Made by a program: the position numbers and the translations under genes. From positions 83,471 to 147,470 of the forward strand of contig JAUYMS010000003.1 in the NCBI GenBank assembly GCA_030698625.1: DNA of 64,000 nucleotides. Direction: 5' to 3'. Origin of the DNA: Candidatus Omnitrophota bacterium. Its GTDB lineage: Bacteria > Omnitrophota > Omnitrophia > Omnitrophales > Aquincolibacteriaceae. This document shows positions 1,023 through 28,000 of the stretch, one piece after another (the first letter of the stretch is position 1; each line of letters begins with the position of its first letter). The notes beneath the pieces are model-generated. The model was not told where the DNA came from. It did not search any database and worked only from the letters and a program-made list of their open reading frames with translations.

Positions 1023-4000
1023 TCGACCGCCGCCATCTCCGCAGCCCAACCGAACTTATTTTCACTCCAACTGCCCTCAGCCCTCGGAAACGTAGAAGAG
1101 TCGTTTCGCGGACTCAGTACAAAGACAGTCATTCTCATCCAGGACGCACATGATTCTCTCGAAGCCCAAGAACATATTGCGGAACTCGTCGACCACCTGG
1201 TGGCAGAAAAGGGAATAAAAACCGTTTACGAAGAAGGTTATGAGGGAGAGGTCCCAAGCGATGAGCTTTTTGGTTTTATCGAGGACAAGGATCACCGGGA
1301 AAAGGTGTCCTACTTTTTTATGGATCGCCTAAGAATCGGCGGCGCCGAATATGCCCACATCAACCGTAAAAAAGATTTTCGTCTCATCGGTGCCGACAAT
1401 ATTGACCTGCACATCGAAAACGTATCACGGTATCAGGATCTGTCCAAGACAAAGCGGGAGACGGTTGAAGACCTTCGGGCCCTAATCGGGCAGGTGACAT
1501 CTCTGGCGCACAGGTATTTCCCCCAGCCCCTTAAGGAGTGGATGAAACTCAAGGAGCGCTTTGAAGCGGGGAAGTTGGGCCTTACCGACTATCTCAAGCG
1601 GATGATGGCGCTCAGCGACGGAGTCGAGGAATCCGAAAGCATTACGGTCGGGCCTATTATCACGCTTCTTGTGGCCGCCGAAGCCTCGGGCGACGACAAG
1701 CTCCTGGAGCAGATCCGTGATCTCGATCCCAAAGCGGTATACCGTGAAATCGCCGACCTCGAAGACCGGCTGGCCGGCATCTACGTGGAGACGGACCGCG
1801 ATCGTCATATTTTCCGCTTCTACCGGGACCTGACCCTGCTCGGACGCTTGAGCGACATCGCGGTGACTCAGACCGAGTATGGTGCTGTTCAGAAGGCCCT
1901 GGCACGATTTGATACCCAAGGGTTGGCGGAATTTATCACCAAGAATACCGGGAAGTCGGTCGTGCTTTCGCGGCAGTGGGAGCGTAATATCCGCAATGCG
2001 GTGCGCTTCTACGATGTGGCCCATGCCCGGCACAAGGCCCTGCGCCGCCGCCTTGAAGAATTTAAGTCCGATCCCGAAGAGGAGACTGCCGCGCTCGTCT
2101 TCGGAGGTTTCCACACCGAAGATATTCGTGAGATCCTCAAAGAACTGGATATATCCTTCCACGTTGTTTCACCGCGGATCACCGAGATGAGCGAGCGGCA
2201 TCAGAAATATTACAAGCGCTTGATGTCGGCCGGCTATCATGACTTTGAATTAAACGACAAGGTTCGTAGGGCGTCGCGCGCCGTGACTTACTTTGAGCTC
2301 GATGGCAGCGCCGCAATCATCGCGCGTGCTCATGATTATGTGCGGAGTGAATTGCGGGATTTGCCGCGCGAAATTTTGAATACCAATATTGAAAAGCATT
2401 TGGGCGGCGAGGCGGTCTTACAAGCGGGCGTGAAGCCGGAAGCACAGACGGACGCGGATTTGCTTGGTCCGGCGCCGGGCATCGAGAGCGTTGTCGGTTC
2501 TGAGCGCTCCGAACTTAGGCGTCTGGAGTATGGGGGGACAACGCTGTTATTCACCGCAGCGGCCGGAAGTGCGGCCGCAGGTGCGGTCCTCGCATTCCTC
2601 CTGCCGTGGATGGGGCTGAAGGCTTTGGCCGCTGCAATCGGCCTCGGGGCGGCAATCGCCTTTGCGGGCAGCGCCCGCAGCCGTATCGCCCTTGCGTCCA
2701 AAGTTCGGGCAGCCCTCGGGGAAGTCACCGTCATCGGCAAGGGTTCCTACACCAATGTCATGGGACACGAGTCCCTCACCAACAGCCTTAGGCCTGAAAG
2801 CACAAAACTCTCACGCGGTTGGGTAATCCTGCAGAAACGCGGCGCAAAAGCGCTCAAAGACCTTGAGGAATCCGTCAAAGGACCGCAGAACCGCGATGCC
2901 GAGGAAAAGGCTGTCTATCAAGCGCTGTATAAACGGGGATTGGTTCCGAAGACCGTCTATCTTGGGCTCATGCCGATACGCGACATCAAGATCAAACCCA
3001 CCGACAGAAACATGCGCGGCATTTACGACGATGCCGAAGGTCAGTTCCGTAAGGACCGGAAGGACAAGGACAGCCGGCTGCCGGATCACCGCAGCGCCGA
3101 TATTGTTCGCATTGCCATTCAGGAAGAGGGCCTGCCCCTGCATGAATATTTCAAGCTTGTCACCGCGAAAAAAGGCACGGCCATCACAGCGCTCGTAGAG
3201 TTTACCCAAAAGCTTTGGGGTGAGGGGTTCATCGACCTTGACCTGCGCATTGATAACTACATGGTGAAGCTGAAAAATGGAAAGCCCGTCACGGATGCCG
3301 ATGGCAGCCCGGTCATTCTCCTGCATGACTTCGGGGCCGTTTTTAAACTTCCGCGCTCGAGAGAAGGCATCGAGTCCTTTCTGAAAAGCACGATCAATAA
3401 GTCCGACATCTCAGCCGGATTTTTTCTCCTTAGAAATCTGATCCACGTCAACCGCAGCTTTGAGCAAGCCGGCAAAAAAACTATCAAGGTGTACAGCCCC
3501 ATCGCAGACTCCCATGAGAATGCCATTGCGAAGAAGCTTTTCCCCGGCATGAGCCTCAAGGGCATTGCCGAGATGTATGTGCTGGGCCGCAACGAGGCGA
3601 ATCACGTTTCGACGGGCTTAAAGACCTATCTGTTGGAATTCTTTCAGCGCGACGGGCGAGGAGAAGTGATCGAAGGTCATATCGAGGAACTGGCGCGTCG
3701 TATTTTCTTGGCGCTTACAGAAGCAAGCGGCGATCGTGACGACCGCACCCGCTCGGAATTAAGGGCGGCGGATGCGGGGTGGATGGCAGAGCTTGACGAC
3801 GCGTCGGCGCATCAGCTGGCCGTCGACGTGATGCGCCGCCTGGAGCACGTGAGTCCGGAGACGCCTTACGAAGCCAAGTTAGGGGCGGGCAGTGTCTTTA
3901 AAATGGGCGAACAGAATATTGCGGTCGAATACGGCACAGCCAAAACAGGCGGTTGGTTTAGTAAGGACACCGCGGTGATGCGCATTGGCGCGCTGGTTTT

Positions 4001-7000
4001 TGTTCAGCTGCAGCGCGGATCAGCGCGCTCTCTTACGGCACAGCTAAAAAAGCACATGATAAATCTGGGGGATCTCTATCAACAGAACCGAGGCAACATC
4101 ATTTTCATGCCGCCCGCCGACTACTCACGGCCTTCAGCCCAAGACCCCGTGCACATGATTACGCAGATTGCGGTTGCCGCCATGCTGGCAAGCCGTGAGT
4201 CTTTTCCGGGTGCCGTTGTCACGGATCTGGGCGCCGGAGACGGGTTGCTTTCGCAGATTGCCCTGCGGTTGGGGGCCAAGCGGGTCGTCTTAGTCGACAG
4301 GAAGTACGGACAGCTGAGGAAGGCCGAAAAACTCCTTCGAGGCCAGGGCTATGACCAATTTGAATTACTCGAAGCCGATCTGACCGATACCCGCTTTATC
4401 AAACGCATCCTGGAAGAAAATCTCGACCGGGAATCTACGATTGCGCTCGTGAATATCGGACCGCATAAGCGCCTCTACGGCGACGCGAACCGGATCGTTA
4501 TGGAGCGAATCATGCGGTGGACCGGCTTGGGGTTGATTATCAATGCGGGATACTATGGCTCCGGGTGGATCTTCCCGGAAGCCCACGACGAGGAAATTAA
4601 GTATCTCGAAGAATTGCTTCCGCACCATGGCTTTGAAACGACGGTCTATGAAGACGGTATGGGTTGGCGCCGGGCCCTGACCGCGAAGCGCGGCGCGCAA
4701 CGCTCTGAGTTAAGAGCGGAAGAAGGCAAGGCTGAATTTATCGCGCGTATGGAACAGATCTTTGCCGGCGTGAAGCAGTCGGGAAAAAAGCTCGGCACGG
4801 AAGAGTTCGCAGAGCGCATGGGTTATCCGGGGCGCTGGGTCACGGCAAGAAATCGCGCCAAGCGTCTGGGTTATCCGCCCGCGACCTTGCAGCAATACGT
4901 TGAAACCGGGGCCGGAAAGGGCAGGGCCAGGGAAACCAAACAGGAATTCGCGGCGCGCCTGGAAAAGATTTTTGAATCCGTCAGGAAGTCGGAGAAAAGA
5001 GAAAAGATCTCGCGCAAGCTTTTCATGCGCTTAACGGGTTATACGAATAAGTGGGATGCCTTACTGCAGCGCGCGCGCAAGGCCGGCTACGCGTGGGAAG
5101 CCATCAGTCCCTATGTGGAGGCAGACGAGGCCCCGTCAAAGATTGAATTCTTGAAGCGGCTCCGGGCGATTGCCGACGCGGTGAAGCGCCATAAGAGACG
5201 CGACAAGATTTCGCGTGATTTCTTCATGCGCCTCATGGGCTATCCTGAAAATTGGACTGCGCTTATTCAGCGTGCACGCACAAGCGGCGTTACCCTGGCT
5301 GACATTAGTGAATTTGTTGAGAGTGCCGAAGAAACGGGGGTCGATGACAGAGGCCGCATACGCGAAGAGCAGCTTCGCGATGCCGTCACGACGGCCAAAG
5401 AAGAATTCGGTATAACGGGTCAAAGCATGCAAACCCTGAACCGCGCAAGGCGCGCCGAGTATCTGAACCGCGTTGCCGCACTTGTCGGTTACACGAACCG
5501 AAATAACTTCCTTCACCTTACCGAAAAAATGGGCGTGAATCTCGCGGCATTCGACATTCACCGCCTGGAGCGCCTCGTTCCGTATACGCTGACCGAAAGC
5601 CGCCAGTGGTTGATTGACAATCTGCCGAAGCCGGAGGATACGGAGGGCCGAAGGAAGTGGATCAGCACGATCATGCATCTTACCGGTATGGGGATGCTCG
5701 GCAGGACGGCCGCTTATACCTTGCTGCGCGCTGTAAGCTCGGGAGAATCCGGATTCAGTGAACTCGACAAGCCGGTGGCTGAAGAACTCGAACTGGATCT
5801 CTCGACCGTCTCCTCGTCGCTGCTTGGTAAAGAGCCCGTATCCATGGACCGTTCCCCGAATCTCCTAGACTTTTTTGTCACGGCGGCCAATCGCAAACTC
5901 GAGATCGAGCGGCTCAACCCATCGGCCCGCAGCCGTCAGATTACGATGACCCCGCTGCTCGATAATCATCTCTTTCCGTATCACTTGGAGCAGATGCTCA
6001 CAACACAAAGAACGAGCACAAGGGCAGGGGTGCTGGTCGAAGAAGTGATCGGGGAGTTGGGGAGTGAACTGAATGCGGAGGAGCGTACGTTGCTGCGGGC
6101 CGTTGTGCGGGCCCGTGCCGCGGGCACGCGCTTGCGTTATCAGACACATCGAACCGTTACCGCCGCCAATGAAATCTTGTTTGGGACCCGGGAGACTCTT
6201 GGGAGTACCGGCGTGTATCACAAAGTCAAAGCTGCCGTTGAGAACAGCGAAAAGCTCCGCGCAGCATTTGAGGCTTTGCGGGGTGATCTGGATCTTTCCA
6301 CGGACCGTTTTGACCGCGGCTTTTTCGAGTGGCTTCATACCGGGGGGTATCTCCATGACGCCGAGATTCATGGCATTACGCGGCTTATGGTTTACGACAT
6401 CGAAAACGTACCGTCGCCGCATCTCTTGCCGAAACTATCGCCTGAAAACAAACAAGCCTTTGCCGTCGCCTACTTTAGAAACCATCACTTTCAGCAGATT
6501 GCCGAGAATAGCGCCGCAGTCCTCGATGACCCGGGCCTTCCGGTGCATACGCTCTCAGCCGGGTCTCTGCGGGGATGGATTCAGGGGCGCCGGCCCCGAA
6601 AGATTGTGGGCGGCATTCGCAGGCTCGAAGCCGCTCTGAAACCGGGGAGTCCGGTTCAAGAGGTGCGTGAAAGTTCTACGGAACACGAACGTGAAACAGG
6701 ACAAATACTCGCGGGCGGGGGGCACAATAAGGATCTGTTGAGTTTTATTAACGGCCTGCATATGCGAAGGGCGAAGGTTGTCGCATTCTTTAATTTGGCG
6801 ACAAGGATTTCAGAGTCGGTAACGGGTCCGAAGGCCCTTGAGCTGAAGCATGCCTATCAAACTTTGCTTCTTGGGGTACTCAAGAACCCTGAATTGGAAG
6901 TCGACTCAACGCCTGTCCATCTCATGCTCATGAGCACGATTGTTAACCACCGTCACGACGAGGCGTTTTTAAGAAAATTCTTCGAGACCTTACTCGTGGC

Positions 7001-10000
7001 GGCCCATGGCATGAGCGCGCGAGTTTCGAACAGAGAAGCGGCGAACATGTTGGCCCGGACAATTCAGGGTTCGGCTGTCTATCTTGCGGCCGGCCCCAAG
7101 GGACCGATTACGCGCGAGGGTCTGGTTCACGCCTATCAGCGATCGGCGGCGGAGAAAAAACGTTACCTCAAAGTGCAGACGGTGCGGGACGACGCGGAAT
7201 TTCGTCTCATGGGCAGCTTGGCGGTCCCGGTTGGCTTGCGCCCCGATAATGTTTACTTCTCGAAGCTCTACAATGCGGTCATTGCAAAGGTCTATGCCCC
7301 GGTCCGCGTTATCTCTGACGAAGATGCCGCCGGTCACAAGGTCCGGAACAGATCACCCAAGACGTTGCGGCATGTCCGTGAAAGCCAAAAATTTGATCTC
7401 GCAAAAATTCGCAGTGAAGCCGACGAACACCGCCGGCGCCTGCGGCAGGCAGAGCGGCTCGCCTATGACTTTTGGGGCACCCAAGGCGAGCCGGGGTATT
7501 GGCCGGAAGAGAAGGTGAAGGGCTACATATGGACCCACTACCGAAGGTGGGTTCGCGAGGTCGTGTGGGAAAACGGACGCCGCGACATGGGCAGTCACGA
7601 CGGGGTCGATATGGAGGACCTCATGGATCTCGCGCGGGATTCAGTCGCCTATGTGGGTTACACCTACAATGCGCCGGAAGAATTCACGCTCAATCTCGAC
7701 GACCCGGGCTCCCCCGAGGAGCGTCACGCAATGATCACCGGAGTTGAAGCATTGGTGCAGGAAAAGGATGCGACCCTTAAGGAATTCGAACTCATGGTTA
7801 AGGACAAAGACAAAGATGCGACGGAGCTAAAAAGAGCGGGGTTCGGTTTGAAAAAGGCGGAGCGCGCAAAGGCTTATGTGGAATCAGTGCTGACGCTGCA
7901 TCGGCATTATCTGGAAGGGGATGCCGAAAAGGCAGCTAATGTGTATTTCGACCTCGCCGAGCAGCGTGAGACGATCGAGCGGAATATTATGCGAAGTCTG
8001 TTCACGAGTTATCTCAGGCCGAGTATTTTGCATTACAAGTCACGCCGGGCGGTCAAACAGGCGTTTTTTGAATTGAAGGCCATATCTCTGGATCAGCCGC
8101 TTCCCGACGGTGACGGTGAGCTTATGGACATCGCGATCCCCGTTTTGAGATCGCGGGATGAAGAGGCGGTTATCGTTGATGACCCGAGGCTTGCCTCCTT
8201 CCGCAGCATTGCCATTAAACAGCACTTTGCACAAGTGAGGACATCAGCCTTAAGTGATACGGATCGGGATCAATACATCATGCGGCTTTATTACGGACTC
8301 GAGCCGGCGTATGCGGGTGTTGACCTGACGCAGACAGACATCGCGACTATCGTCGCCTTTCATGGCGGGGCCCTCATTACCGATGAGCGAATCCGGCAGA
8401 TTATCGCCAGGCACGACAAGGATATTTTCCGGAGAGTGGTGCACCTGGCCCAGGCGGATAACCTGAAGTCCTGGGACACCTTTATGCTTCAACTCGGAGT
8501 TAAGGAGCCTGATGACGCTCCGCCGCCGGTTGTGATTCCGATCGAAGAGAACGAGTCTAAGATCTGGCTGGGCTCACACATTTGGATTGCCACATTGGGG
8601 GATCATGCGGGCAAATATCTCTCCTTCAAGATCATCGCCTATGACCGTTACAATCCGCGCTCCGCCGATGCAGGCTACAACAACGTCGAACTGCAAAAGA
8701 GAATCTACCCTTATATGCTCGAGATTGTCGTCAGGGATCCGACAAAGCCGGAAAAGGGCAATGAAAATCTGGTCGCCGTTTTTCACGTGCATGTGATTCA
8801 TCGGCCCACCGGATCCGTACAGCAACTACCCATCATCGCGGTTCGCGGAAAGCCGCATTACTTCCTACGCGTTGATAGCGGTGCGCATGACAGTACACTT
8901 GAGCCGGCGGCCGAGAAGGTCGACCGGGATCAGGGCGAGAGGCCGGAGCCTACGGAAGTTCCCGAAGAGCCCGTTCGGGAGGCCGCGATAGAAGAGCCTG
9001 TCGACCGCTTTAAAGATTGGCACGAGTCGGCGATCCCGCATTTGCAAAGACAGCTGAAGAGCGCGCAGGCGACGTCACTGGGGCACCCCGATTTTGAGGA
9101 ACTGGCACCGGTCGGGGAACACGGAAGAATCTGGGTAGCGTATCAGAAAGGGAACGTCGAACGTAAGGCCTTCTTCCATACCGGTATTGCAGGCGAAGGT
9201 CAGGCATGGGTGGGGCGGCGGTATGATCTGAGTAAGTCTCTTTATGTCTATCGAATCGTGCGCGTCAGCGACACCGGCGAGGCCGAATCCACTCGCTACT
9301 ACAGGCTGGATCTTGACGACCATGGCCAGCCCACCGCGATGGGCTTCCGTGAATTTAAGTACGACGGCAGTGTCTGGGAAAAAGTTTCCATTCCCGGCCC
9401 GTTTTGGCTGAAACAGCGGAGTGAATTGAGATCGGCGTCAAACACCGATGATTTTGATCCCCGATTGATCGATACCTACAGCCGCCTATTTGTCGAAGGC
9501 CTCCTCAATACAGTTGAGTCGGAGGGGTATCCGGAACCTTATCAGGGTGCGGTCAAGGAAGCTCGCTCCCGTCTTAATGCCGTCGATATGCCGAGCCTTG
9601 CGGATGTTCTTCAGCCGGTTGAAGCGGCATTGAAAATTCCGGTCACGCTCGACGGTTTAAGCGGTGCGGCAGACGAAACTAAGGTTTACGAACTAGCGAG
9701 ACTCCAATATAAAGTCCGCGCCCTAAACAAGTTTCGCGTACCTATTCGGGAATTTATCAAGAATCTAATGGAGCGGGCGGAATTTGCGGCAAGGATTCAA
9801 TCGTCGACCGAGGGCCCGGTCCGGATGGGACTCATTCATTTTGAAGAGGAAGGACACAAATCGGGTCAATACAGCAACGGATTGGCAGACATTGTGATTG
9901 ACTGGATGAGCACGTGGGACGCCTCGGTCAACGCGATTGTGTTCAGAAACATACGTTTCGATTACTTCTTCAACATCGTCGGGTTGGCAAACGCACTGCA

Positions 10001-13000
10001 ATCCAAGTTTTTCCCGGATGCCCCTGATCCCGACGCCTTAGTTGTTCTCTTGCGGGAATCCTTGAGAAATGCCGTTGTGTGGGGCAACAAGAGCCGGCCG
10101 GACAATTTAGCGGCAATACGCTGGCGGTTCGAGGGAGAAGAGCTTGTCATCGATGTCATTGACCGGAACCGGGAAGAGATTGATTTCACTAAAAAACCGG
10201 AACCCCCGCGGGGCGTCAAGCCGATCTACTATAGCCCGCGTACGGATCCTGCCTCGGGCGGGTATCCGGGGGACATCAAACCCTTTATCGATCCCGCTTT
10301 CCTGACGGGTGATCGCTACGATTTTCCGATTCTCGATAAATCCGGCCGGCGTCTAGGCCAGGTCCTGCACCTGCGTTACCCCTATCCTCAACGATCCGAG
10401 TTACGGGACGAAGACGATGAAGAAGTACTGGGTTATGTGGCCGATCATGCCGACTTCGATACGACGGGATTTATCACGAGCCGGTTTTCCGGAGGTTCTA
10501 ACGTCGTCGGTTTGGGGGATCTCCACACGAATCTGGCGGTCAAGGCGCAGACGATCGATCTGATACGGTCGGGGGAAATTACGCATCTGGTTATGGAGCT
10601 GAACGGTGAGGATCTGAACAAGGCGCTCAAGAATCGGGAATCATTGCGCGAAGCGATTCGGCGTCATTTTGAAATCCTTGTCATTAATGACGAAGACATC
10701 GAGAGTTTCGTCGACGTGATCCTTGCGGCCCAGACAGCCGGCGTTGAGTTGGTCTTCCCTGATCCTCGCAAGACGAGCCGGCCGGACGATCCGGGCCAGG
10801 AGACGGTCGACATGGAAGCGGCCCTGGCAATCGGGTCTATTGTCAGATCTGATCAGGATGCGAAAGTGCTGGTTCTATTCGGAGCCGAGCATACGCGCCG
10901 CGGTCTGCGCTGGCCGCGCAAGGAAGGCCGGAGCCGCCTTACCCTGGGAGAAAATCTCAAAACCGAAGAGGGTGTGCGCTACTATTCGGTCTATCTTGAA
11001 TCGCCGGACCGCAGGGATACCTCGGATTACACCCTGGTGAGAGGCGATAAATACCGCCAGCAGGGATTCGCCCTTACAAATATGGCGTCCTTCCCGCGGC
11101 AGATGCTGGACAGGGCAGCCGATACCGACTTCTTTCGACCTGAGGAAATCGATGCCTACGTTCAACTGCCTCTCCTTAGTTACGAAGACTACCGGACACT
11201 CGTCGCTGCGGGAGAGGATCTACCCAAATTTGTTTTGCCGGAGTTTACCGAAGACTTGGCGGTCAAAAGCAGTGTCGGCGAAAATGAACCGGAGCGCCGC
11301 CGTGCCATCCGTGAAAAAGCGGCTAGGCTGGTGGCCTTGTTGAGAACACAACCGGACGCCGATTGGCCGATCGAAGAAATGGTTGAGGAGTTTAACGGGT
11401 TCCGTCTTGATGTGAGCGAGTACGCGCCGGAGATCGGAGTCATTTATCTCTGGCTCAGCCCGACCGACTCGTTCACGATATCCGTCCCTACTTATTTCGC
11501 CGTCCCCTCACAAGGGATCGTCGTTCACGCCCCGGAATTCAGCGATGACCGCTATGAGGATGAAATCATTCAACTGCCCATCGAGATCGCGAAACTCCTG
11601 AACGGTAATGAGATTGAGAAAGACTCCAGCGGAATCTTTAGCCCGGCGGGGTCTGATATCTACTGGAAGGAATGGAGACAGCGGCATGCCTATCAATACT
11701 ACCGGACCCTCGTGGGCCCCATTGGGGCGGGTGCGGTGCAGGCGATTCTAGCGCGCGAGAGCGGCAGGAAGTGGAGAGTTGTCGACTTCTTCGCCGGAGA
11801 CGGGAGCTTCTTGCGGTATTTAAGTAAACACTTAGCAACGGTGCAGCCGGACACGGATGTTGATTACGCGATGGTGGAGAAGTTCAGCGAACTCATCGAT
11901 CAAGCGCCGCGTACTTTAGCAGGCACGGCGGTCGAAATTCATCAAGCGGATATTCGACACCTGCAGGACGTTAAAGCGATTATCGGTAAGAAGCCGGTCA
12001 TCGTGACAGCCTTCGGCGGGTTGAATTCCGGAGTCGTCAAGCAGGACGACGCCGAGGCCATTGCGAAAAGAATCTACGCAGCCTTGCCGGCCGGCAGTTA
12101 TCTCGTGCTCGGCGGCTACAGCGCGATGATGGTCAATGCGAAGGAGCTCGCTGCAATGGGCTTCGAGGTGCTCAATACGGGACTGCCGCATTACATGGTG
12201 ACCGAAGACAGAGAAGCTCCCAACCAACTTTATATCCTGCGCAAGCCCTATCCGTGGTATCGCGGCGGATTGTGGCGCTCGGAGTTAAGGAGCGCTTTTG
12301 ACTACGATGCCTACAGGAAGCGTCAAGAAGCCGGTCTTGAGGTAATCCTTGAAGAGATCGATGCCCTGCGCACCGACGGCCGCTGGGAAAAGATGCCGCT
12401 TAGTGCGCGGCTCCAACTGATCGGTGAGCGGGCCGACGTGGTTCCCCTCGACTGGGGCGCTTGGCTTGAGCTCCTCGAAAAAACCGGCATGTGGTTCGGG
12501 CCTGAGCGTGAAAAGATGGAGGACCCCACCGATCAGGTCGAGGCTACGATGACGGGTGACTACCAAATACTTCAGGCGCCCAGCATGCGCCAGCCGCAGC
12601 AAGGCGAAACCTACTCGCGCTATCTGACCTCCTATGGCGCTTGTGACTGTCTTGTGTTGACCCTTTATCATCCGGGTACCAAGGTCGGCATGATTGATCA
12701 TCTGTATCTGGAGCGAAAGAAGAATCCCGCCGAGCGCATCGCCGGTGCGCTAAAGACGATGCATGAGGAGTACGGCATCGATCCGCGCGAAGTCAGGGCC
12801 GAGATTTCCGGCGGTCAGATGGACCTATCGAACTTCAAGGCCATTCAGATTCTCGAAGCGCTCGAAACGCATGAAGTGCCGATCTACTTCTTCCAGGCCC
12901 TGGACTTCCCGCTCGTTATGCTGGACGGCTATTATCCGTATGCCGAGGGTGACGGCCATGTCGCCCTGGATTTAGAAACGGGCCGCCATTACCGGCTGCA

Positions 13001-16000: not shown

Positions 16001-19000
16001 CGCCAGGGTTTTTGACCATTTTATTCATGAGAAACTCCATGAGGTTGACGAAGCCGCTTACGAAAAGGCATTGCCGGGTTTTCAGGATGTAAGGTATTTC
16101 GTTCCGGGCACCGTGTTGACTCAGCTCGACCTCATGATGGGGGGCGTATTCTCCCCGGGAATTTCAGAGCAAATCGCCGATGCGGCAAGCGATCCTCAAG
16201 ATATTCTCGAACAGATCAGTACGGCCTATCCGCGTGCCTCGGCTGAGCGCGACCGTTTGTTGGTCGAACTTGCCGACCACGCGCGTGCCGATAGCGGCGT
16301 CCTCAAAGACATCATGCCGCTGCTTGACGGCCCGTGGTATAAGCAGGAAATCGGAGTGCGGGCACTTAGAAGCATTCGTGCTTCGCAATCCACAACGTCT
16401 GTTGACGATTCCCTGAAGCTCATCGAAAACTGGCTGCCGAGCGCGACGCCGATACGTGACGGGCTCCTTCACGAGGTCATTCAGGAAGAGGTCGGCACGC
16501 TTCCGGAACTGAATGCGGTGGAAGAAAAGCTCTTCGCACTGCAGCCGAACGAACAGAGGCGCCTGCGCGGAAACCAGGCCGTGGCGCTTATGGGCCTCGA
16601 GTTTTTTCAGGCCATATTCGGGTACGGCACTCCGATGGCCTCCAAGCTGGACCTCTTGGATTGGTTTTTCTTTGAGGGCGGCAAGCCGGACATCCTGCGG
16701 CGCTATGAATTTCATTTCCGTATTTCCTTTGAGGGTTTTATCGAGGAATCCGGCGATCTCGCCAAAAACGAACCTGAGGTTGCGCGCGAGGTCAGAAAAC
16801 GGCTTCTCGCGTTTGTGTTGGACGGCGACCAGGGTATTCTTTCAGACGACGATGCGACTGACGAACTTTTTAATCGGCTGCTGGCCCGCTGGCTTCCGGA
16901 AAACACCGAATTCGACATCGTCATCCGCACGGTTCTCGAGAGTTTGATCGGGCTCTCCGACCGTTTGCGAAAACGTGAAATCCTCATGCACCTGTTGGCA
17001 GGCCCCGACGATCTCAGTGCACTCGGAAACGACCCGGAACTCCGGCAAGCCAAAGTGGCGAAGCTCATTCTCGAAGCCAACGGCTTAGTCGGTATCAAAG
17101 TCGGACAGGTGCTCGCGAACTCGGCACTTGTGACCGATATGCCGGTGCCGATGAGGACGGAATTGGCGAACCTGCAGGACCGCGCCGACCCGATGGACCG
17201 CGCCGTGAGCTTGCGGATTCTCGACCAGATCCACAACGGCAAACTGCACGACCATTATCCGCGAATCGGCCGCGTGCTCGGGAGTGCATCCACCAGCGTC
17301 GTTTATGACGCATGGCACCGCAGCGGGCGGCACGTGGCGCTTAAGCTGCTGCGGCCGACCGCGCGAAATCGTACTGTCGGTGATCTCGCGATGCTGAAAC
17401 TCATACCGGCCGATGTCATCGAGCGGCTGAATGCGAAGAATATCGCAATTCCGGAGTGGCTTGAAAACTACCTCGGTCTGCTTGTCGGGCGCGTCGAACG
17501 TCTCGTGATGCCCGAACTCTTTTATACGGTGGAGGCACAAAGCATGGACCGGTTCAGGGTGCGTCAGCTGGCGCGGGGTTCGGCGCTCCGTATTCCCGAA
17601 GTCGTGGAAAATCCGGGTGACGATCTGATTGCGATGGAACTCATCGAAGATGCCGTGCCGGTTTCAGATGAAGCGGGCATCAATACCCGAGGGCGGCAGA
17701 TGGGTGATGTGCGGCGCGACATTGCGCAGGAGATGATCGTCGAAGTTCACGAAGGGGAATATCACGGTGATCCGCATCCCCGAAATTTCCTGGTCGACAA
17801 GGACGGCCGACTCTGGATGATTGATCTCGGTGCTGTCTACGAGGTGAGTCCGAAGAGTGCCGCATTTCTCATCAGCCTCGTCGCCGCCTTGCACATGGGC
17901 GCAGATATACGGCCCATTCTCGCGGACCTGCTTACGGCGAATGCGGATCCGGCCGCTCTTGAGTCGGCGATTTCAGAAGCGGCGCGAGTCGAAACAATTC
18001 CGGAAAAGATTGCCCAGATTTTCCTCACGCTTGACCAGCAGGCGCTATTGCCCGAAGACCTGGCGCTGACACAGCGGCTTTTCCTGCAGGGCGGTCACAT
18101 CTTCGAAGGCCTGAGTCTCTGGGACCTCATGCAGATCGGCGAACAGCTCAAAGACGGGCCTCAACGCTCCGAGCTCGGATCCGAAACCCCCGTCGTGCGG
18201 GAAGGTCTGCGGCCGGATTTGACACCGTTCATCGGTATCGGCGTACACCGTAAGGACCATCTGTCTTATGGGAACTCGGCCGCAATTGAAGGCGCGGAAA
18301 AGTTGACGGACTTTCTTCGGGACCGCGATTTGCTGCATGAGATACAGCTGACCGTCGAGACTGAGGCCCAGTCTCAGATCGGCCGCGAGATTGCGTCCAA
18401 ACTAGACCGGGTTCCCGACGCAACAATGCGTTTGATTGTGGACGGAGCGTTCATGCAAAAGTGCTGCTCCGAGGCCGTGCTGGGTATCTTTGACCACTTG
18501 GAGGCTAAACCCGGGCGTTTCGCGGAGCTCCATCTGCCCCTGGATCTTATCCTTTACTGGGACGACCGCCAGATGCGGGACTCTCCGCCCGAAGAAAAGG
18601 AGGAATATATTGCGATGCAGGTTCTCCCGAACCTTGAGCGCCGTGGTTTTGGATATAAGGCTTACGGTGTCAATCACCAGATCCTGGCCGAGCGCGACCC
18701 GCCCAAGGGAGGCGAAACCCGGCTGGTCGTCAAACTCTGGCATTCCGCCAAGGAAATGGAGAACTGGGCCGACAGCCTCGCGGCAAAACCCCTGAGGTCG
18801 GAGCTGAGGGCGCTCGAGCCGGTGATGCCGGTGAAGAAGGTGCTTGTCATGACGGGCGAATATTCTTATATGCCGTTTGACAAAGAGCGTGAATGGGAAC
18901 GGTACGTGGTCGATTACCTGCGCAAGGCCGGTGTCGAAGCAGAGTTTGTGTACGCCAACGGGGCGGGTGGAACCTTGCGGCGATTCGAAGAGGAGTTCGA

Positions 19001-22000
19001 TGAAATCGGTCTCGTGATCGCAACCGATGACGTCCTGCGCGGCGTCCGCGAACGGGAACGTCTGATCGGGCGGAATCCGGTGCCTTATATCTTAATGAAG
19101 ACGACCTATCTGCGAATGGACGAACCGGAGCTCGAAGAGCTCGGCAATGCGGTTTATGTGCATAGTGGGCTTGGGACATTGGACGAACTCAAGGAAATCA
19201 TTCCCGAGATTGTCGGCAACGCCGAAGGGGCGGTCTATGAGCCGTTTTGGACAGGAGAAGGCATTGAGGCGAAACCGGCGCGGGAAGGGGTCGAACATCC
19301 GGCCGTCGAGTTGCTTGAGGAATTACGGCAAGACCTCACAAATCCCACATTCCTGAAAAAGATTTACCGCGACACGACCGACTACGATGCCGAACCCCTG
19401 ACAGCGCGCTTCACGTTGATTCCCGGATACAGTCTACCGGCTTTTCCGATGACGCCCGCGAGTTTTCGTGACGACGTCCACCGCCGCATTATCAAGGAGG
19501 TTTATTCCATCCTGCCGCATGTCATCGAATTTCCCGTGGAGGCTACGGGCCGCGCGCCCGTGGTCATCGGAGCGGACTCCGATGAAGGCATCGCCCGGTG
19601 GGCGAAGACAATGAGGGTCGGCAGCCGTTTCGATCAGTGGATCAGCGATAAAATGCCTCTGGTCCATATCGAGCAAAGCCTCAACCGGATCATGACCGAA
19701 ATCGACGGAAAAGAACGTGCGAACAAGGCATTGAGGCGTAGTGTTTACAGGAAACTCGGATGGCGTGTCCACGATCTTGAAATCAAGAGCGAAGCGGCAG
19801 GCGATGAGGCGGGGCAGACGATATTTAATGTTATGGGAACGTGGCTCCTTGCGAACCCGGAGGCCGTCACTCGCGCCTGGGTGGCCGAAGACGAAGACGG
19901 CGCAGCGGCCGGTATGCTGGTACTCAAAAGAACGATTGCGAACGAAACCTTCGGTGAGCACCGGGAGATGGTGAATTCAGCGATCGCAATCGCATCGGAT
20001 GCGGCAACTCGCGGCAAGGGAATTGCGCCGCGTATGATTCGCGAGAGTTTCGAAGCCATGCGACAGAGGGGCATACGCTATTACTTCGCGGATATTGATT
20101 ACCGCAATAAACCGTCTTTCCGCACTTTTATAAAAACAGCGGCCGCGGCCGGGGCTACGGTGACTCACTTCCCCGAAATGACGACTAGCCGGGAAGAGGA
20201 ACGGCCGTTTCTGATCGACCTTTTTTCCGACCAACCCGCGCCGCGCGATCTTCCGGAAGCGCTGCCCTCCGATCCCGATGAGGCCTGGGCTTATGTTCTG
20301 GCGCAGGGATTGATGCAGGAGCCGAGCGATGAGTACTCGTGGACGCCACCGGCCGCTGACGGGGACCGGGCGGTCCGCGAGTATCGAGTCAAAGATGTGA
20401 CCGAAGAGATTGAGGCTGACGAAGATGCGGGGACCTGGATTGATTTTCAGGAACTTTATGACGACAAAGTGCATGCAAAACTTAGGGATATCACGGAATA
20501 CCCGGACCCGGCCGGCCATGAAGCAATGATGAGAGGATTTGAAGTCCAACCCGACGGCAGTTTTGATACCGTCAAACTTGAGGATGGGGCCTACTCTGCG
20601 ATTGTCCGCATTGCGGACCGCGCCGCCGTTCAGGATACCCAACAAGCCTTCCGCAAGTTTGTTGATGCGATTGCTAAGGTGTTTCCGGCGGATGTGCGTG
20701 ATCAAGTGCGCGTGTGGGAAACCGGCGAGGACAACCCCCATATCGGAACGGCGGTCTTTCAGGTGCCCGAAGTACTCTTGGGCGGAAAACAGCCCCGCTT
20801 GCAACCGCGGCATATCGAACCTCTGCAGGAACTTGTCCGTGAAATGACTCAGGACGAAGAAACAATTCCGCTCACTTTCTTGGGCTACGGCATCGGAGCC
20901 GACGGCGGCTTTGTGCGGCTCTACAGCGACCCGGCCGGCCGGTTCATGAAACTGCGCAACGCCCTTCTCCTCAAAGGCCACAAGGTGAGCCAGATGTACG
21001 CTTCGGGGCGGGGAACGAACATTATTGCTATGACCGGAGGCCGCATTTTGCATCTGCCCTATTCCGCCGATGCCGCGATTGCGGCCCGGCAGAAGGACCG
21101 CGTTCTGGAAATTGTGCGCGACAGGGCGCAGGCCTTTCAATCGCAGTGGGAACAGAACCTCGCAGAGCCTCAAATTCTTGATGTCGACGGCCTTACCTGG
21201 GTCTTGGAAGACAAGTGGCTGACCGAACGCAACGAACAAGGCGTCGAAGACGTCTTCTTTCCTTTTGGCGGCCGTTCGGAGCTGCGGAGTTTGAGCGAGG
21301 ATCTGTTAGCTGAGTTGGCTGCGGAGTACGCGGTATCACGGTTGACGAGCGGCAGGAATTCGGCCGAAGAGCAGGAGCTGATGCTGAAAACCATGCGGTC
21401 CGATGTCCACAAGGCAATCCTCTGGCGGTACAAGGGCCTTGAGTTTGAACTTCGCGAGCGTATCGAAGAGGTTGTCTTCGAAGCCGTTCAGGCTGCGGTG
21501 AGAACCTATGACGGAGTACGGCTGAGCTATCTCGATTATTTTTACGCGACGGCACAGGAAGCTATTTTGCATTTTTTCGCAAAATCCGTGCCGGCGGCAA
21601 AGCGGCCCTATCTGCTTTCGGAGCCGCTTGAGGCATATCTGAGGTTTCTGAGTCTCGAGAACCGCCGGCCGGAGCTCGACGAGTTTCTCGGTCTGACCGT
21701 AAATGATATGAAGAACGAAGATTACCTCGTCCTGCAGAGAGAAACGGATGCCGCTAACTACGAAGATTCGATTTCGGTGCCGGTTCGTGCGGCGGCGCCG
21801 GAGAATCAACTGCCGAAGCCCGTTCAGATCGCGAACGCGGGAATGGTGCGGCTTGCGAAAGCATTCGGAATTCAGGCGGCCGACATCACGGCAGCCATGA
21901 TCCACAGCGTGCCTAACACCGAATGGGCCGTGCTCTCCTTATTTTTCGGCATCGATGGCGAACTCATACAGGATCCCGAACAGATCGCCCGAAGGCTCAC

Positions 22001-25000
22001 CGAACTGGGTTACCGCGATGCGAATAATGAAGCGTTACGGGGCGAGAAAGTTTCCGACTACGTTGTCCGGGGTTTGAACCGCTTGCAAAATCGCGAAACC
22101 GGGCGCACGCGCCTTGCCGATGCGTTGGGCAAAAAGCCGACCGAAATTACGCCCGATCTCCTGCAGGCCTTGACCTCGCGTGAAGAGGCGCTCATCCGGT
22201 ATAAGTTTGGTATCGGTAAATCGCGTCTCATGACTCATCTTGAGATCGCCGAGAAGTTGACGAAGGAGGGCTTCAGCTTCAACGACGGTGTTCACGTGAC
22301 AAAAACACTCTACCGCATTTTACAAAAGCTGAAGACAGCTCAGACAGGGTGGCAACTGCTCGCCGCCGATCTCGGGAAGCCGGAAGAAGAAGCGAGACGT
22401 GATTTCGAGAAAAATGCGGCAAAAATGACCCAATTGGAAACATTGGCCGTCACCCATTATTACGGTCTCGGGGTCAACCGGATCAAAGACAAAACACGCC
22501 TGGCCAAGCATCTGAGTGATCTGACTCATGAGACCATCCGAAGGAATCGCCTTTACCGTCTGCTTGCGCGAGGCCTTGCCGTGCTGCGCGGCGAAAAGAA
22601 ACGCGTCCGCGTCAAATCCGCCTACCAACCGCCGATCATTTCGGAGATCCCGGAAGAAGTGGGCGTGACTGGCGACGAACTCCTTCAAGTCATGCGCGCC
22701 GCCGCAGGCGATCAATCTCTGGCGGAGGCATTGGTGCCCGTCCGGGATGCATGGTATGCGTTGCATCCGCTCGGGCGGGAAATCCTGATCATCAACTTCG
22801 GCCTCGGAGTTACGGCCGCAAAATCGCTTCCTGAGATCTCCAAACGCCTGAAAGAAAGTCCTTACTGGGTTGAGAAAAGTGATCCGGCAAAGACAACACT
22901 CACACGCCATCGCCGGTTAGCGCTTGCAGATCTAAAACAACGCGTGAGCGGCCTTAACCGCCTTGCCGAAGACACGGGTGTTTCCGAAGAGTATCTTCCG
23001 GGAATCATTTCGCAGGGACTCGCGCTTGAGCAGAAACGTGTTCTCAAGATGACTTTCGGACTCGATACCGAACGAATCGTGCCGGATAAATTAATCGTTG
23101 ATATCTTTCGTGATGCATGGAGCGAGGAAATCAATGCCATGCGGGTGCGGACAGTGCGCAGGGACGCACTGCAGAGGATCCGCGAATTTGCCGTCAACGC
23201 GGGTTATGCCGACGAGTCGGTTCTGACGAAACGGAAAAAAGACATGTCGAAACGGACGCCGCGGCCGCCCAAATGGACGCGCGAACGAGTCGACCAACTC
23301 ATCGCCGAGTCTGCGGACGAAAAGTTGCGCGCTACGATCCTGCATCGCCAAGGCCTGGGCGGGCTTGTCAATGCGGCGTCGGGTTTCTACGGGTCGTGGC
23401 AAAAGGCTCTGGAGGCGCATCACCGCGATATTACGAAAATCAACATACGAAAAACACCGCAGCGTTCGGAACTGCGGGCAGACAGTCCGGAGTTATCGGA
23501 TTCCCGAGATGCGGAATACAAAAAGAGACTGACGGACATTCTCGAACAGCGCGCTTTGATCATGGAGTTAAGAGAGCTTGAGCCCGCGAGCGATGAAATG
23601 GTAGCGGTCATCCTGGAGCGGTTGGGAGAATACGCGGCTTCCGCGAAAGCGAGCCTGGTTGATGTCGAGGATTTTAAGTTCGTCCTGCGCCTTGTGACGA
23701 ATCCCGCTTGGAGGACGGGTAAATTTAGTGAAAAGATGAAGGCGCTTACTCACCTTTGGGGATATGTGGTGTTCACAGCTGTACGGGAACATCGCATGAA
23801 TCCGCAACTCCGAAGCTCGGTAGACCACCTGATCACAGACATGCTTGGTGCGGAGTTTGAGAATAGGGCCCCTCTCCGCAGGATTCTAATTAACACCGAG
23901 GTTGGAAGCCCGTATCACGAAAAACCCCTGCACGGTGAGGAGCAAATGCTGGGCTCCGACTTTGTGTATTTGATCAAGAGTTTGGCTAAGAATCTGAATT
24001 TATCCGGCCGTCTGGCTGAGAGGAACGACCGCCTTGTCGGGCCCATCCTGCGGGCTTTCGAGGGCCGGTATGATTTTACGCTGACCGAGGCGGAGCGGGG
24101 CAAAATTCTGCAGTTGATGGAAGGCAATGACCTCCTGGCCATTTTTGTCTCGGCGATGGACAACGGGCTCACCCGGCCGCCTTCCAGAGAAATGACGCTT
24201 GAAGACATCCGCAAGATCCGCGGGAAATTCCGCGAGGTTGTGGCGGATTCGATAGGGTCGTATCCGGTCTCCGCGAGGGACCGGATCCTCGTTCGCATCC
24301 TGCAGAAGCAGCCCGAGCTTGGCCGTGAGTTGATGGCTGAGGCTCAGGCGGCTGTGAGTTACAGCCGTAAGCCCATCGACTTTGAGGCAGCCGGGGCAAG
24401 TACTGTGAAGAGGCGAAAAGGTGTGAATGTTGCCGATACCGAAGGTTTTGGTGACTTTGCAGTAAAGCACCCCGACCTTCATGCGGTTTTGACGTCCCGT
24501 GAGAGTCTGCTCACGCTCATGCAGACGGCTGCGCTTGTCCGCGACTTCTTTCCGTATACACTCACGGCCCCCGACAAACTGCAGACCCCGGTTCAGTTTG
24601 CCATTGAATACGGAATGTATCTGCCGTTGGGGCATGGCTATTATCTGACACCGATTTCCGGCTCGTTCAAACGTCACCTGCTCTTTACGATGGATGACAA
24701 GAACCGGCCGGTCATGACGGTGCCGATCAAGATTCCCGGAAAGATCCCGGGCCGCCGGCCCGCTCTAAACGGTGATCTCGACCGCTACCGCGATGCCCGT
24801 GAAGTCTTTGGCGACGATATGGAGATTGCCGGAGCGATGGGAACCGTGGAGCCGGCGGGACTCGAGTCCGTTATGCTCTATGGCGAAGAGCGCGAAGTCA
24901 CAGAGAAGGATCATCTGCGTGTTCTGGTCTTGGAAGGGCCCGAAGCCGGGTGGCGCGTCGAATATCTGCGCCATAAAGACCTGCAGCGGATCTCAGACCA

Positions 25001-28000
25001 TTATCCCAAATACCATGGTGATGCCAGCCTCGTTGCCGACGATATTGCCAGAAGTATTCTTCGCGGCGTGGCCCAGTGGCATGCTCTGAACTATTTAGGA
25101 AAAGGCCCGGGAGAGGGATCCGGCACGGACCTTCACACCGGCAATTGGGAACTCCTCACGCCGCCGTTAAACGGAGACCCCGAGCAGGGTATCTCAGTCC
25201 GCAATATCATCGATCTTGCTTCCCTGCATCAATATGTAGAGGACCGGGCGGCGTTTGATGGGCAGCGCATGTGGGATCTCAAAACGGTCATTGATGCCAG
25301 AGATGTCCTGACGGGCCCCGGAGTCACCTTCAGTCTTTTGGCGCTGCACCTCAAGGAGAACGAACACGATTTTCTCGAAGACCCTCACGACCTCTTCGAA
25401 AAGTACACCGCGATCTATTCGGAGGAGTATGAAGCGGTCAAGCAGATAGCCAAGCGGCCGCCGCCGATGAGTTACAGGGAAATCTATACGACAATCCTCG
25501 GAGAGACGCATGAAGCACCCCTGATCATTACGGGGCTTACGGGCGCGGGAAAAACGATCTTGGCAGAAAACTATGAGAAGTATCTGCGGGAAGGGGAGGT
25601 GGAGGTGCCGGCCCACCTCGTGCATAGTGATGGTTTCTTACGGTACTCGGTAATGGCCCTGCTCATTCGCTTGCTGATCACGCTCGGCTGGATCAAAGTT
25701 GATGCGCTTACGAAGGAAGGCTTCATTCAGCGGCATTACTTCGATTTGGAGAAACGCGACCGATTCGTCGATGAAGTCAAAGCCGGAAAGTACGAAGGCA
25801 AGCAGCTCGTAATCGAAGGCATCTTCTCAGACATCCTTTTTGCGCAGGCCTTAAATGCAAAGACGCTTCTTATAGAAGCGAACAGCGCATCGGTCTATGA
25901 GGAGCGGTACGTCGACCGGTCCATGAAAGACAAAAAACGCCTCAAGCTGCCGGCCCAATTCCTGGCGCGTACGCTGATTTCAAATCGCTTAAATCAACAG
26001 CTCCTTGATTCAAGGGAGAATCATGACCTTGTCTTGAACCTTGATGACATCTTTAAGCCGAAGCTGACCGTCAACCGGCCTCCTAAAAAAGCAGAATTAC
26101 GCCGCTCGGGACTTCTTAAAGTCATAGTCGACGCTCTGACTGCCCCGGCGGGAATTCGCGAGCGTCTTACCGCCGACGGGGTGAAGTTCGGCAGCGTGCC
26201 GGAACCCTACGTATCGACATTCGACCTTGAAGGCCTGCCCTGGGTTTTTACGCAATACCGGAATGAGGACAAGGATTCTCCGTTGCTATCGCTTGATGAA
26301 CTCAAGGAACAGGCTTTGACATTGACCGGCACGCTGGAGGTGAAGTTCGACGGCGGTGCGAGAAACGCCGGGGTCTTTCTCGGCTATGTCCAAGAAGTCC
26401 CGCATCCAGTTGTTATCAAATACTTCCAGGCAGGCGTCAGCGATATGGATGCTTATGATCGGGCACTTGAACTTTATATGGCGCAAATAGTCGCGTTCAG
26501 CGGGGTCGGGCCTGAATTTTACGGGGTGCTCGTCGAGGACGGGGAGATTGTCGGGTACGCCATGCAGGCGGCCCCGGGTGCGTTCGCGACCCAGACAAGC
26601 GACCTGCTTTACCTCATGCGCTATCTGTATCAATCGGGTGACGCCGACAACAAGGCCGTGCAGCAGAACGTGATGCGAATCGAAGAGACGATGGCCCGCT
26701 ACGCCATGGTTCCCGTAGACGGGCATTTGAATGTTCTCCTTTCCCGGACCGGGCACATATCTTTGATTGATGCGGGCAATGTCCGGCCGGCTTCCGAACT
26801 TGCGGAATTTCGCATGCCCTCGTGGATGAGTTCCGAAGAAAAAGTCAAGCAGCTGTTCCAACTTATGCAGGCCTACCTGCAAAAACGACGGCCGCTAATA
26901 ACCCGTCGCGGCGCTATTCATACGTTGCTTGATCATACCCAAGCGGAGCACGCAGCACCTCTTGTATCGGTAACAACACGGGAGATGATGAAAGATGGTT
27001 TGCACGAAAGCCTGGTTAAGTACGTAAGGCAGGGAGGGCATCTGGTATTGACGACTCCAGCCTTCAAAGAAGAGGCCTTCCTGAGCGCGATCGACGGCAT
27101 CCACCGAAATTTTGCGGAGACCGGCGAAATCGAATTGCTGGGCCGCATCCACTTCATCGCAAGCGACAATAATCTTAAAGACATTTTTGTCTACGAATCC
27201 GATGCGGGCGGGTACCGGTTGTTGCCGGACGATCCGATGGAACCGGATCCCCTGCTCAAACTCGTTCGCTATCTGAACACGGCAGGCCGCAAGGTGCTGC
27301 CCTTGATGTCCTATGACTATGAGTCTGCCAGCGTACCCCGTCGTGCCTATTTCGATACTGCCCATCGCGTGTTTTCGCAAACCCCACATGCCGGCAAATA
27401 CGTTGCGATATGGGATATCGAAGAAATCACCGAGCGGCTTGCCGAACGCGCCCCCGAAGAACTCGAAAAGGGCAGGAAGGAACTACCGGCTCAGCAGGAC
27501 TTTATGGAATGGACATTCGAAAGCACCCCGTTCGAGGTGCCTGCCGGAAATCAGGTGAAGGTGATCGTCGGGGAAAAAGGACGGGGCGCACCGGGTTTCG
27601 TTTGGGCCGGTGTCAACGATTGGGAAAAGACCTATCTGATTCCGTTGGTTCAAAACCCGGCGACCGGCAGACACGAAGCCGTGCTCCCGGCCGGCACGAC
27701 CGCATTCACGTTCTATTGGCGCGATTCCCCGAAGGCCGCCGGCGAGCGATGGGAAGGCCGCGATTTTCATGTGCGCTCTGCTGAGCGCTCGGAACTACGG
27801 GCAGCCGCGGTCAATATCACGGAAACCGTATTGCCGAATGCGGGGCTCAAAGGAATGGCGTCACAGGATGCAAAGGTGCTGATCGCCGAACTGGACGGCG
27901 ATTTCCTACTGGAAAGTAAGACCTGGCCCGAAAGGAATGCGCGCACGTTTACCGCCGCCGAACGGAAGATCTTCGAAACGGGTGAGGGGCTGACGCCGTT

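Follow-up and report, generated by a model that had tools for sequence, protein, structure and literature searches.

What kind of protein carries several kinase-like modules in one chain, and do those modules form a fixed set or an exchangeable cargo? The question is raised by a stretch of 64,000 nucleotides (nt) of contig JAUYMS010000003.1 (the window, to which all nucleotide positions refer), in which one reading frame (903..37655, + strand) stays free of stop codons for 12,250 codons (36.7 kb) and encodes a giant protein of 12,250 amino acids (aa). The frame opens with TTG at 903; translation probably starts at the next codon, the ATG at 906, which is preceded by AGGA, giving a giant open reading frame (ORF) at 906..37655; residue numbers are all counted from nt 903, and all features of the giant protein lie on this + strand. 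Most of the sequence of giant multi-enzyme proteins from uncultivated bacteria lacks annotation, and such proteins may work as one chain or be cut into pieces. An earlier reading of the window from its letters alone (the sequence-only reading) had proposed that one apparently secreted polypeptide carries four phosphotransfer-type modules of different ancestry, as a payload of enzymes rather than a pathway. Its observation was largely right, being beyond chance for three modules, probable for a fourth (a P-loop region) and unconfirmed for a fifth (a GHKL-like region). Its interpretation was partly right: cargo rather than a pathway is supported, and neither the different ancestry nor the secretion is established.

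We consider it probable that this is a membrane-associated giant ‘cassette-array’ protein with interchangeable kinase cargo, in which copies of the pentapeptide RSELR stand on either side of each cassette. A conserved N-terminal signal and cap domain (N-cap) and a C-terminal segment ending in [SA]A would flank a variable string of enzyme cassettes. Four cassette-borne modules would bind or use ATP: kinase 1, predicted to be a membrane-anchored and probably active phosphotransferase with a complete catalytic set; a UbiB/ABC1 module, which may be an ATPase or a small-molecule or lipid kinase; and, within one cassette, kinase 3 and the P-loop region, which would bind nucleotide through domains of uncertain chemistry. 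These kinase modules would be cargo and not core, with ABC1 cassettes recurring, highly diverged, in other members of the family.

Kinase-fold modules in a single reading frame

That one polypeptide carries several ATP-dependent modules is borne out by the single stop-free ORF, and the motifs quoted in the sequence-only reading all lie where it had placed them. The metagenomic source, and the fact that for a neighbouring gene only an 11-kb contig was matched (run SRR13727534, exact match), could point to several genes fused by misassembly or sequencing error. However, 36.7 kb are open in one frame, composition is even along the whole ORF, and independent assemblies contain giants that share the N-cap, the delimiter and the [SA]A ending, so that we regard such an artefact as very improbable. 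Comparison of the protein with itself by BLASTP found no internal repeats.

The UbiB/ABC1 atypical kinase module (17046..17951; aa 5382–5683) was the only strong kinase match in Pfam scans of the whole protein in tiles, and was also recognized by NCBIfam and by sequences of solved structures in the PDB. A UbiB/ABC1 kinase had been proposed at 17082–17850, and PF03109 matched there (aa 5424–5663; E = 1e-25, 90 bits against a cut-off of 22.9), with all family-invariant residues kept. The NCBIfam equivalog model for UbiB (TIGR01982) matched with E = 8e-35, scoring 120 bits against a cut-off of 487.55, and the mycobacterial ABC1 structures 5yjz and 7cy2 matched with E = 3e-12. The module reads KVGQ, ELANLQD, an Ala-rich loop (GSASTSVVY), VALK, ELFYTVEA, HGDPHPRN and IDLG. 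Aligned with seven stand-alone UbiB proteins (no others were found), the module keeps all 38 invariant columns, and all of these motifs fall within them; the columns cover KxGQ, LQD, the Ala-rich loop, the β3 Lys, the Glu pair, HxDxHPxN and the Asp of DxG. Identity to these proteins is 21–26% in the alignment and at most 29% by local BLASTP.

The module thus shares with the UbiB/ABC1/COQ8 family (PF03109; 5yjz and 7cy2) the KxGQ extension, the Ala-rich loop, the catalytic Lys, the Glu, HxDxHPxN and DxG, and differs from it in being embedded between RSELR delimiters in a 12,250-aa protein. UbiB proper is a stand-alone protein of about 500–650 aa with C-terminal membrane helices, whereas the window module falls below the equivalog cut-off and has neither the C-terminal membrane helices nor the hydrophobic tail of the stand-alone proteins (P0023–P0029). 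In characterized UbiB/COQ8 proteins, the KxGQ extension occludes the protein-substrate cleft. Because the module retains this extension, it is more probably an ATPase or a small-molecule or lipid kinase than a protein kinase.

Kinase 1 (2679..3749) has a protein-kinase-like fold and belongs to an undescribed family, as defined by an alignment of relatives and by structure comparison. The kinase-like domain proposed at 2721–3400 is therefore upheld as a kinase fold with a full catalytic set and no profile match. Its residues comprise a G-loop (G612-K-G-S-Y616), K645, E667/E668, D780-x4-N785 and D809-F-G811. Neither Pfam nor NCBIfam gave a significant match, and PDB sequences, searched with the single sequence and with a profile, gave none for either kinase 1 or kinase 3; the window domain matched no Pfam model (Pkinase, APH or other kinase families) at E ≤ 10, and across 11 members the sole kinase-family match at E ≤ 0.05 was to YrbL (E = 0.018). 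The spacing of kinase motifs, assessed by regular expression, was not significant against shuffled sequences and was not used as evidence.

Only ten relatives of kinase 1 emerged when 1.84 billion cluster representatives were scanned exhaustively with HMMER. They are either complete free-standing proteins of about 400 aa with N-terminal membrane segments (P0003, P0010 and P0022) or segments of other giants; P0003 is a complete gene. The family, at an overall identity of about 30%, shows no variation at D778, L779, D780, N785, H808, D809 and G811, and keeps the β3 Lys and αC Glu in most members. Invariance of D-x4-N and HDFG at such divergence argues for purifying selection on the catalytic site. 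The model has a bilobal fold that superposes on solved kinases. As in protein kinases, the G-loop, Lys, Glu, D-x4-N and DFG are canonical; unlike in solved kinases, the domain has a membrane anchor at its N terminus and extra sequence inserted between β4 and β5. From the invariant catalytic residues we infer that kinase 1 is probably an active, membrane-tethered phosphotransferase.

Kinase 3 (26160..26882; aa ~8420–8660) is a compact protein-kinase-like fold and represents a second undescribed family, again by alignment and model. An APH/kinase-fold domain had been proposed at 26330–26800. The kinase fold stands (predicted local distance difference test (pLDDT) 85–95; the top 50 Foldseek matches are all protein kinases, E = 5e-6), but the APH assignment does not: there was no match to APH (PF01636), Pkinase or any other kinase profile, and no catalytic Asp is conserved. 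The exhaustive scan recovered 12 related proteins, one with two copies, giving 13 aligned domains. K8506 (in HPVVIK) is invariant, D8623 (in D8623-A-G-N) is present in at least 90% of members and E8523 in most, although in fewer than 90%; the αC Glu is followed by a near-invariant AQ, and FYG, YAMQ and IDAG(N) are kept. The position of the catalytic loop is occupied by D8606-G-H-L-N8610, which has non-canonical spacing and an Asp that is not conserved in the family, making catalysis doubtful. Compared with solved kinases, kinase 3 has a minimal C-lobe and lacks the conserved catalytic Asp; its role is probably in ATP binding or regulation, or else in an atypical form of catalysis. A GLMA_2nd-like (class I glutamine-amidotransferase-like) match lies immediately past kinase 3, within its cassette, and scores just under the cut-off (26946–27053; aa 8682–8717; E = 1e-5).

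The probable P-loop NTPase or nucleotide-kinase-like region (25485..26012) shares the cassette of kinase 3. The GLTGAGKT motif reported at 25533–25556 is exact and is the only Walker A motif in the giant protein (G8211-LTGAGK-T8218), with a candidate Walker B-like LVIEG after it, but profile support for the region is below threshold. The region resembles the P-loop N terminus of P0018, which also has a kinase-3 domain (BLASTP, E = 0.002), and it is probably a nucleotide-kinase-type NTPase. The weak GHKL-like N-box proposed at 10045–10180, flagged as weak at the time, could not be confirmed: the candidate region (10002..10211; aa 3034–3103) matched HATPase_c_2 below threshold, and neither a G1 nor a G2 glycine box was seen in it, the G1 position reading DRNRE.

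The closest solved folds to the two new modules are haspin, AceK, CK1, FIKK, IRAK and OspG, with FGFR/KIT for kinase 3, at 8–19% identity and with no membership of a Pfam kinase family. Profile–profile comparison (hhalign) aligned kinase 1 and kinase 3 to the ABC1 module in the correct register with weak significance (E = 0.003 and 0.001, respectively), and did not align kinase 1 and kinase 3 to each other. Together with the Foldseek matches, this indicates one fold in three separate families, with the P-loop region a different fold. The proposal of different ancestry is accordingly right as to separate families and the additional fold, but three of the four modules share a protein-kinase-like fold. 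Neither Pfam nor NCBIfam contains the families of kinase 1 and kinase 3, which are two new kinase-fold families.

Several observations count against this account of the modules. Word-indexed searches of 5.8 billion proteins found relatives of neither kinase 1 nor the P-loop and kinase-3 region, and with relatives so scarce the alignments behind the models of the two new domains are shallow (11 and 15 sequences). The β3 Lys of kinase 1 is replaced by Tyr or Arg in two of the nine members that cover the column, and the kinase-3 family has no conserved HxD...N loop. Foldseek TM-scores for kinase 1 and kinase 3 are low (0.2–0.4), placing both families at a distance from any solved kinase. The P-loop region, run alone, scored 21.3 bits against a cut-off of 29.4 for AAA_18 (E = 4e-4; profile positions 2–118 of 128), and its AlphaFold (AF2) model is unreliable (pLDDT < 50), as expected for a region without homologues; AAA_22 is also sub-threshold (E = 7e-4). 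For the GHKL-like region, HATPase_c_2 gave E = 7e-4 and 20 bits against a cut-off of 27.4. In domain searches, therefore, the ABC1 module exceeds its cut-off, but kinase 1 and kinase 3 have no match and the P-loop and GHKL-like regions fall below theirs.

Such figures could mean that the kinase-like modules are degenerate pseudoenzyme scaffolds in a fast-evolving structural protein. Divergence is extreme (two modules without a profile match and a best UbiB identity of 29%), kinase 3 has no conserved catalytic Asp and the GHKL-like region has no glycine boxes. However, the ABC1 module keeps every invariant residue, and D-x4-N and HDFG of kinase 1 are invariant at about 30% identity. Catalytic residues are thus retained in two of the modules, although the kinase-3 family lacks a conserved catalytic Asp, and we consider it unlikely that the domains are mostly dead.

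A conserved pentapeptide bounds the cassettes

RSELR occurs 16 times in the giant protein, against about 0.035 copies expected from composition, and the rest of the window, translated in all six frames, contains no further copy. The copies, of 15 nt each, lie within 2343..37064 and divide the protein into 17 segments; they start at 2343, 2505, 3750, 4701, 9417, 10392, 12276, 13035, 18795, 21273, 23463, 27786, 29118, 31053, 32205 and 37050. They are always found between domains, with none of the 16 inside a recognized domain. Fifteen different nucleotide strings spell the 16 copies, and this diversity of synonymous codons implies that selection acts on the peptide and not on the DNA; a DNA-level repeat or palindrome is rejected on the same ground. 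A phosphorylation site is also unlikely, as many lineages have Ala in place of the Ser (RAEVR and RAELR). We found nothing relevant in the literature on pentapeptides of the R[SA]ExR type.

Homologous giants carry the same marker, with 16 copies in P0004, 11 in P0006 and 8 in P0005; others use RSEVR, and the variants differ by lineage (RSELR, RSEVR, RAEVR, RSEMR and RSEIR). We also searched metagenome contigs with the N-cap alone, which yields a sample that is unbiased with respect to kinases, and found at least 215 related loci. In the 45 N-cap ORFs that are at least 1,500 aa in length, we counted 263 copies of R[SA]E[LVMIA]R where 2.9 would be expected (about 90-fold enrichment), and 39 of the 45 have at least three copies; the loci that carry the marker are among L084–L163. 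In three kinase-3-bearing proteins of another lineage (P0013, P0014 and P0020), the motif that is repeated where modules seem to meet is [AST]GLEE and not R[SA]ExR.

The kinase modules recur as units between these delimiters. The kinase-1 cassette, consisting of a membrane segment and the kinase, is bracketed by the delimiter in P0004, P0005 and P0006 and more loosely, by RSEAR/RSEVR and ARTELR/AELR, in P0002 and P0007. Within the N-cap sample, L120 has a kinase-1 cassette (aa 719–1009) between delimiters at 671 and 1025, L116 has an ABC1 cassette (aa 3102–3362) with RSEVR at 2954 and 3635, and L088 has a truncated ABC1 match. The ABC1 domain of L116 is as distant from that of the window as both are from free-standing UbiB. 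An embedded UbiB-type kinase had been remarked on as unusual; it is indeed embedded and not stand-alone, but it is not unique.

Cassette boundaries and free-standing homologues show that the cassettes are autonomous units, the extent of the kinase-1 cassette being that of free-standing kinase-1 genes. Other homologous giants have methyltransferase, GNAT and PPDK domains as cargo. As kinase 1 is free-standing and also recurs between delimiters, ABC1 recurs and other cargo is found elsewhere, the kinases are a variable cargo and not a fixed set. Both this delimiter-bounded architecture of a widespread giant-protein family and the occurrence of a UbiB-type kinase as a recurring cassette in giants are new. 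P0002 (aa ~100–130) and P0007 (aa ~1990–2020) share an H-x-G-N...DLGGW module about 130–250 aa before the kinase-1 cassette; it is absent from the window protein and may be another kinase-like cassette.

Protein ends, membrane topology and processing

The protein opens with a Sec-type signal or anchor (906..1022) that comprises MRKKNFKRGF, a hydrophobic core (hydropathy peak at aa 11–35) and AYA followed by S, between which the signal would be cleaved. Full-length homologous giants have signals with equivalent AxA sites, and this conservation argues that the N-cap, at least, is exported. The N-cap itself (1023..2342; aa 41–480), about 440 aa in length, contains an invariant QDAH...GGFH (alignment A5) and has no match in Pfam or NCBIfam. 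The QDAH/GGFH pair bears a putative resemblance to the Tiki/TraB/ChaN/erythromycin-esterase superfamily. At the other end, the segment after the last delimiter (the C-terminal ‘cap’; 37068..37652; aa 12056–12250, about 195 aa) ends in SIAA. An [SA]A ending is shared by the giants P0001, P0004, P0005, P0006, P0008 and P0012 and by L116, the endings among homologous giants and L116 being WSA, SAA, LSA, RSA, RAA and TSA, as judged by inspection of C-terminal sequences and not by a scored alignment.

A hydrophobic stretch of one or two predicted membrane helices (2535..2675; aa 545–591, by hydropathy) opens the kinase-1 cassette, and an equivalent segment precedes the kinase in all kinase-1 relatives. 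Its 45-residue hydrophobic run (aa 546–590) is followed by the strongly basic SARSRIALASKVR and is the sole hydrophobic region past the N-terminal signal within the first 8,000 residues; the whole protein has two or three hydrophobic segments. In relatives of kinase 1 that stand alone, the N terminus has two hydrophobic segments, each a transmembrane candidate with basic residues behind it; by the positive-inside rule, this would place their kinase in the cytoplasm. All of the recognizable enzymes of the giant protein need cytoplasmic cofactors (ATP, S-adenosylmethionine (SAM) and acetyl-CoA). The basic residues, the predicted topology of kinase 1 and the cofactor needs suggest that most of the protein is located in the cytoplasm or else acts in that of another cell. 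The description ‘apparently secreted’ is therefore not established: a signal is present, yet the evidence beyond it favours the cytoplasm.

One way to accommodate these features is an enzyme assembly anchored in the inner membrane, with signal and cap in the periplasm, a single pass at aa 546–590 and about 11,600 uncut residues on the cytoplasmic face, in which the delimiters would be flexible linkers or recognition elements. This would satisfy the cofactor needs of all recognizable enzymes, and agrees with the lone hydrophobic region and with the positive-inside pattern (MRKKNFKR at the N terminus and SARSRIALASKVR after the hydrophobic stretch). A 2026 survey of very long Omnitrophota proteins, which weighs secreted against cytoplasmic-face topologies, deems a content of methyltransferase, HATPase and GNAT domains compatible with anchoring at the cytoplasmic face (10.64898/2026.06.07.730766). 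However, these 45 hydrophobic residues may form a hairpin of two helices, like that of the free-standing homologues, which would leave the rest of the protein outside, and the arrangement does not explain why a strict pentapeptide and not a loose linker stands between cassettes. We regard an uncut protein of this kind as a serious possibility, but stop short of calling it probable.

Alternatively, the giant could be exported and cut at R[SA]ExR, by its own M48-like protease or by a separate one, freeing individual kinases, methyltransferases and an acetyltransferase in a prey or host cell, which would supply ATP, SAM and acetyl-CoA. This adds a mechanism to the payload proposed in the sequence-only reading. 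The M48/HtpX-like metalloprotease module (13137..13487; PF01435, 24.5 bits against 20.3) starts directly behind a delimiter, and its HEVLH (aa 4148–4152) is intact, with EYDAD downstream; if the delimiters are cut, it could be the enzyme that cuts them. The Sec-type signal is kept across full-length homologues, and the delimiter is selected at the protein level, always lies between domains and varies by lineage, as expected if it co-evolves with a protease. Delimiter-bounded segments also equal free-standing genes in extent. In viral polyproteins and polymorphic toxins, conserved termini likewise surround variable cargo, with short peptides between units and a protease in cis; the window protein has a similar layout by analogy, and no homology to these systems.

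The window polynucleotide phosphorylase (PNPase) has its best identity among species-representative genomes, 56%, to an Omnitrophota metagenome-assembled genome (MAG), and in a single-gene neighbour-joining tree it groups with two Omnitrophota MAGs and one unclassified MAG, which is weak evidence for an Omnitrophota-related origin of the window. Members of the Omnitrophota have been reported to be predators, with giant proteins whose cleavage is suspected rather than demonstrated; cleavage was proposed by West-Roberts et al. (2023, bioRxiv), who stated that the cleavage points are unknown (10.1101/2023.11.21.568195). Against export and cleavage stand the weakness of this taxonomic link, the lack of a secretion system or conserved partner genes adjoining the window gene or the two homologues examined, and the basic residues after the membrane stretch, which together with the predicted topology of kinase 1 favour the cytoplasm. 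We therefore regard delivery of enzymes in this way as possible but less than probable. It is likewise possible, and less than probable, that R[SA]ExR motifs are processing sites and the family bacterial polyproteins, in which a conserved N-terminal export/cap domain, perhaps with a C-terminal counterpart, would flank shuffled cassettes of kinases, methyltransferases, acetyltransferases and proteases that are cut apart after translation.

Other modules, neighbouring genes and related giants

The remaining cargo of the cassette array is enzymatically diverse. Scans in tiles recognized eight different families at curated cut-offs or E < 1e-4. In addition to those discussed above, they include two class I SAM methyltransferases (4206..4418, aa ~1102–1172, Methyltransf_25, E = 1.4e-7; and 36414..36707, aa 11838–11935, Methyltransf_25/11, E about 1e-11 to 1e-9), a GNAT acetyltransferase (19860..20123; aa 6320–6407; PF00583, 22.6 bits against 20.7) and a class II aldolase/adducin-like domain (34863..35147; aa 11321–11415; PF00596, E = 7.7e-11). 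The second methyltransferase weakly resembles UbiE, with NCBIfam matches all far below cut-offs. A quinone pathway that would pair UbiB with a UbiE-like methyltransferase was considered and rejected, because this methyltransferase is of a generic kind and falls well short of the cut-off of every UbiE/MenG model. The modules accompanying the kinases are thus generic methyltransferases, GNAT, the M48-like protease and the aldolase-II-like domain, in agreement with the proposal of a collection and not a pathway.

For about 70% of the giant protein, no family could be recognized at E < 0.5. The largely unannotated stretches lie at 4719–9416, 13500–16800, 21291–25400 and 27804–34500, and several delimiter-bounded segments, among them aa 1273–2839, 6797–7520 and 8968–10435, are wholly unannotated. 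Species-representative genomes scanned with aa 4800–9700 contained no relative.

The genes around the giant ORF are ordinary chromosomal genes. Directly upstream, on the same strand, is an SseB-family gene (161–703; PF07179, E = 1e-16), which was not seen beside the two homologous giants whose neighbourhoods we examined. Downstream are genes for NADH-dehydrogenase-type antiporter subunits, the alpha and beta subunits of F1 ATP synthase, nusA, infB, a DHH phosphoesterase and pnp. The neighbourhoods of the two homologues have nothing in common with the window locus. On the contig that bears the giant P0001 (L083), a second very long gene (1–1996; product of 4,052 aa) lies a few kb upstream, indicating that genomes with these giants can hold several.

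Giants of Omnitrophota resemble the window protein in length (more than 10,000 aa), membrane association and the presence of many unrelated, highly diverged enzyme domains. Methyltransferase, GNAT, candidate HATPase-like, aldolase and peptidase domains are common to them and to the window family, as is PPDK in homologues of the window protein. Among very long proteins, the survey from 2026 defines a multi-enzyme class, which contains methyltransferase, HATPase and GNAT domains and in which chains of at least 10,000 aa are tiled by many distinct enzyme families with none dominant (10.64898/2026.06.07.730766). The window protein agrees with this class in size and tiling (12,250 aa, eight families and no internal repeats). 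Archaeovorins exceed 30,000 aa and have numerous membrane helices and a divergent SecA_DEAD domain (10.1101/2023.11.21.568195), whereas the window protein has 12,250 aa, two or three hydrophobic segments and no SecA family match in tile scans. A delimiter pentapeptide, a conserved N-cap, an [SA]A ending, a recurring inter-domain motif, polyproteins and ABC1/UbiB are, as judged by text search, mentioned in neither of these studies (10.1101/2023.11.21.568195 and 10.64898/2026.06.07.730766).

Two unannotated stretches of a giant protein thus prove to be kinase folds outside Pfam and NCBIfam, and a kinase of the UbiB type can serve as a portable cassette. A conserved pentapeptide shows where cassettes begin and end, which provides defined constructs and specific sites to look for in proteomic data. 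If the polyprotein reading is true, the pentapeptide would supply the cleavage points that studies of giant proteins say are missing, and the two new kinase-fold families would be mobile cassettes.

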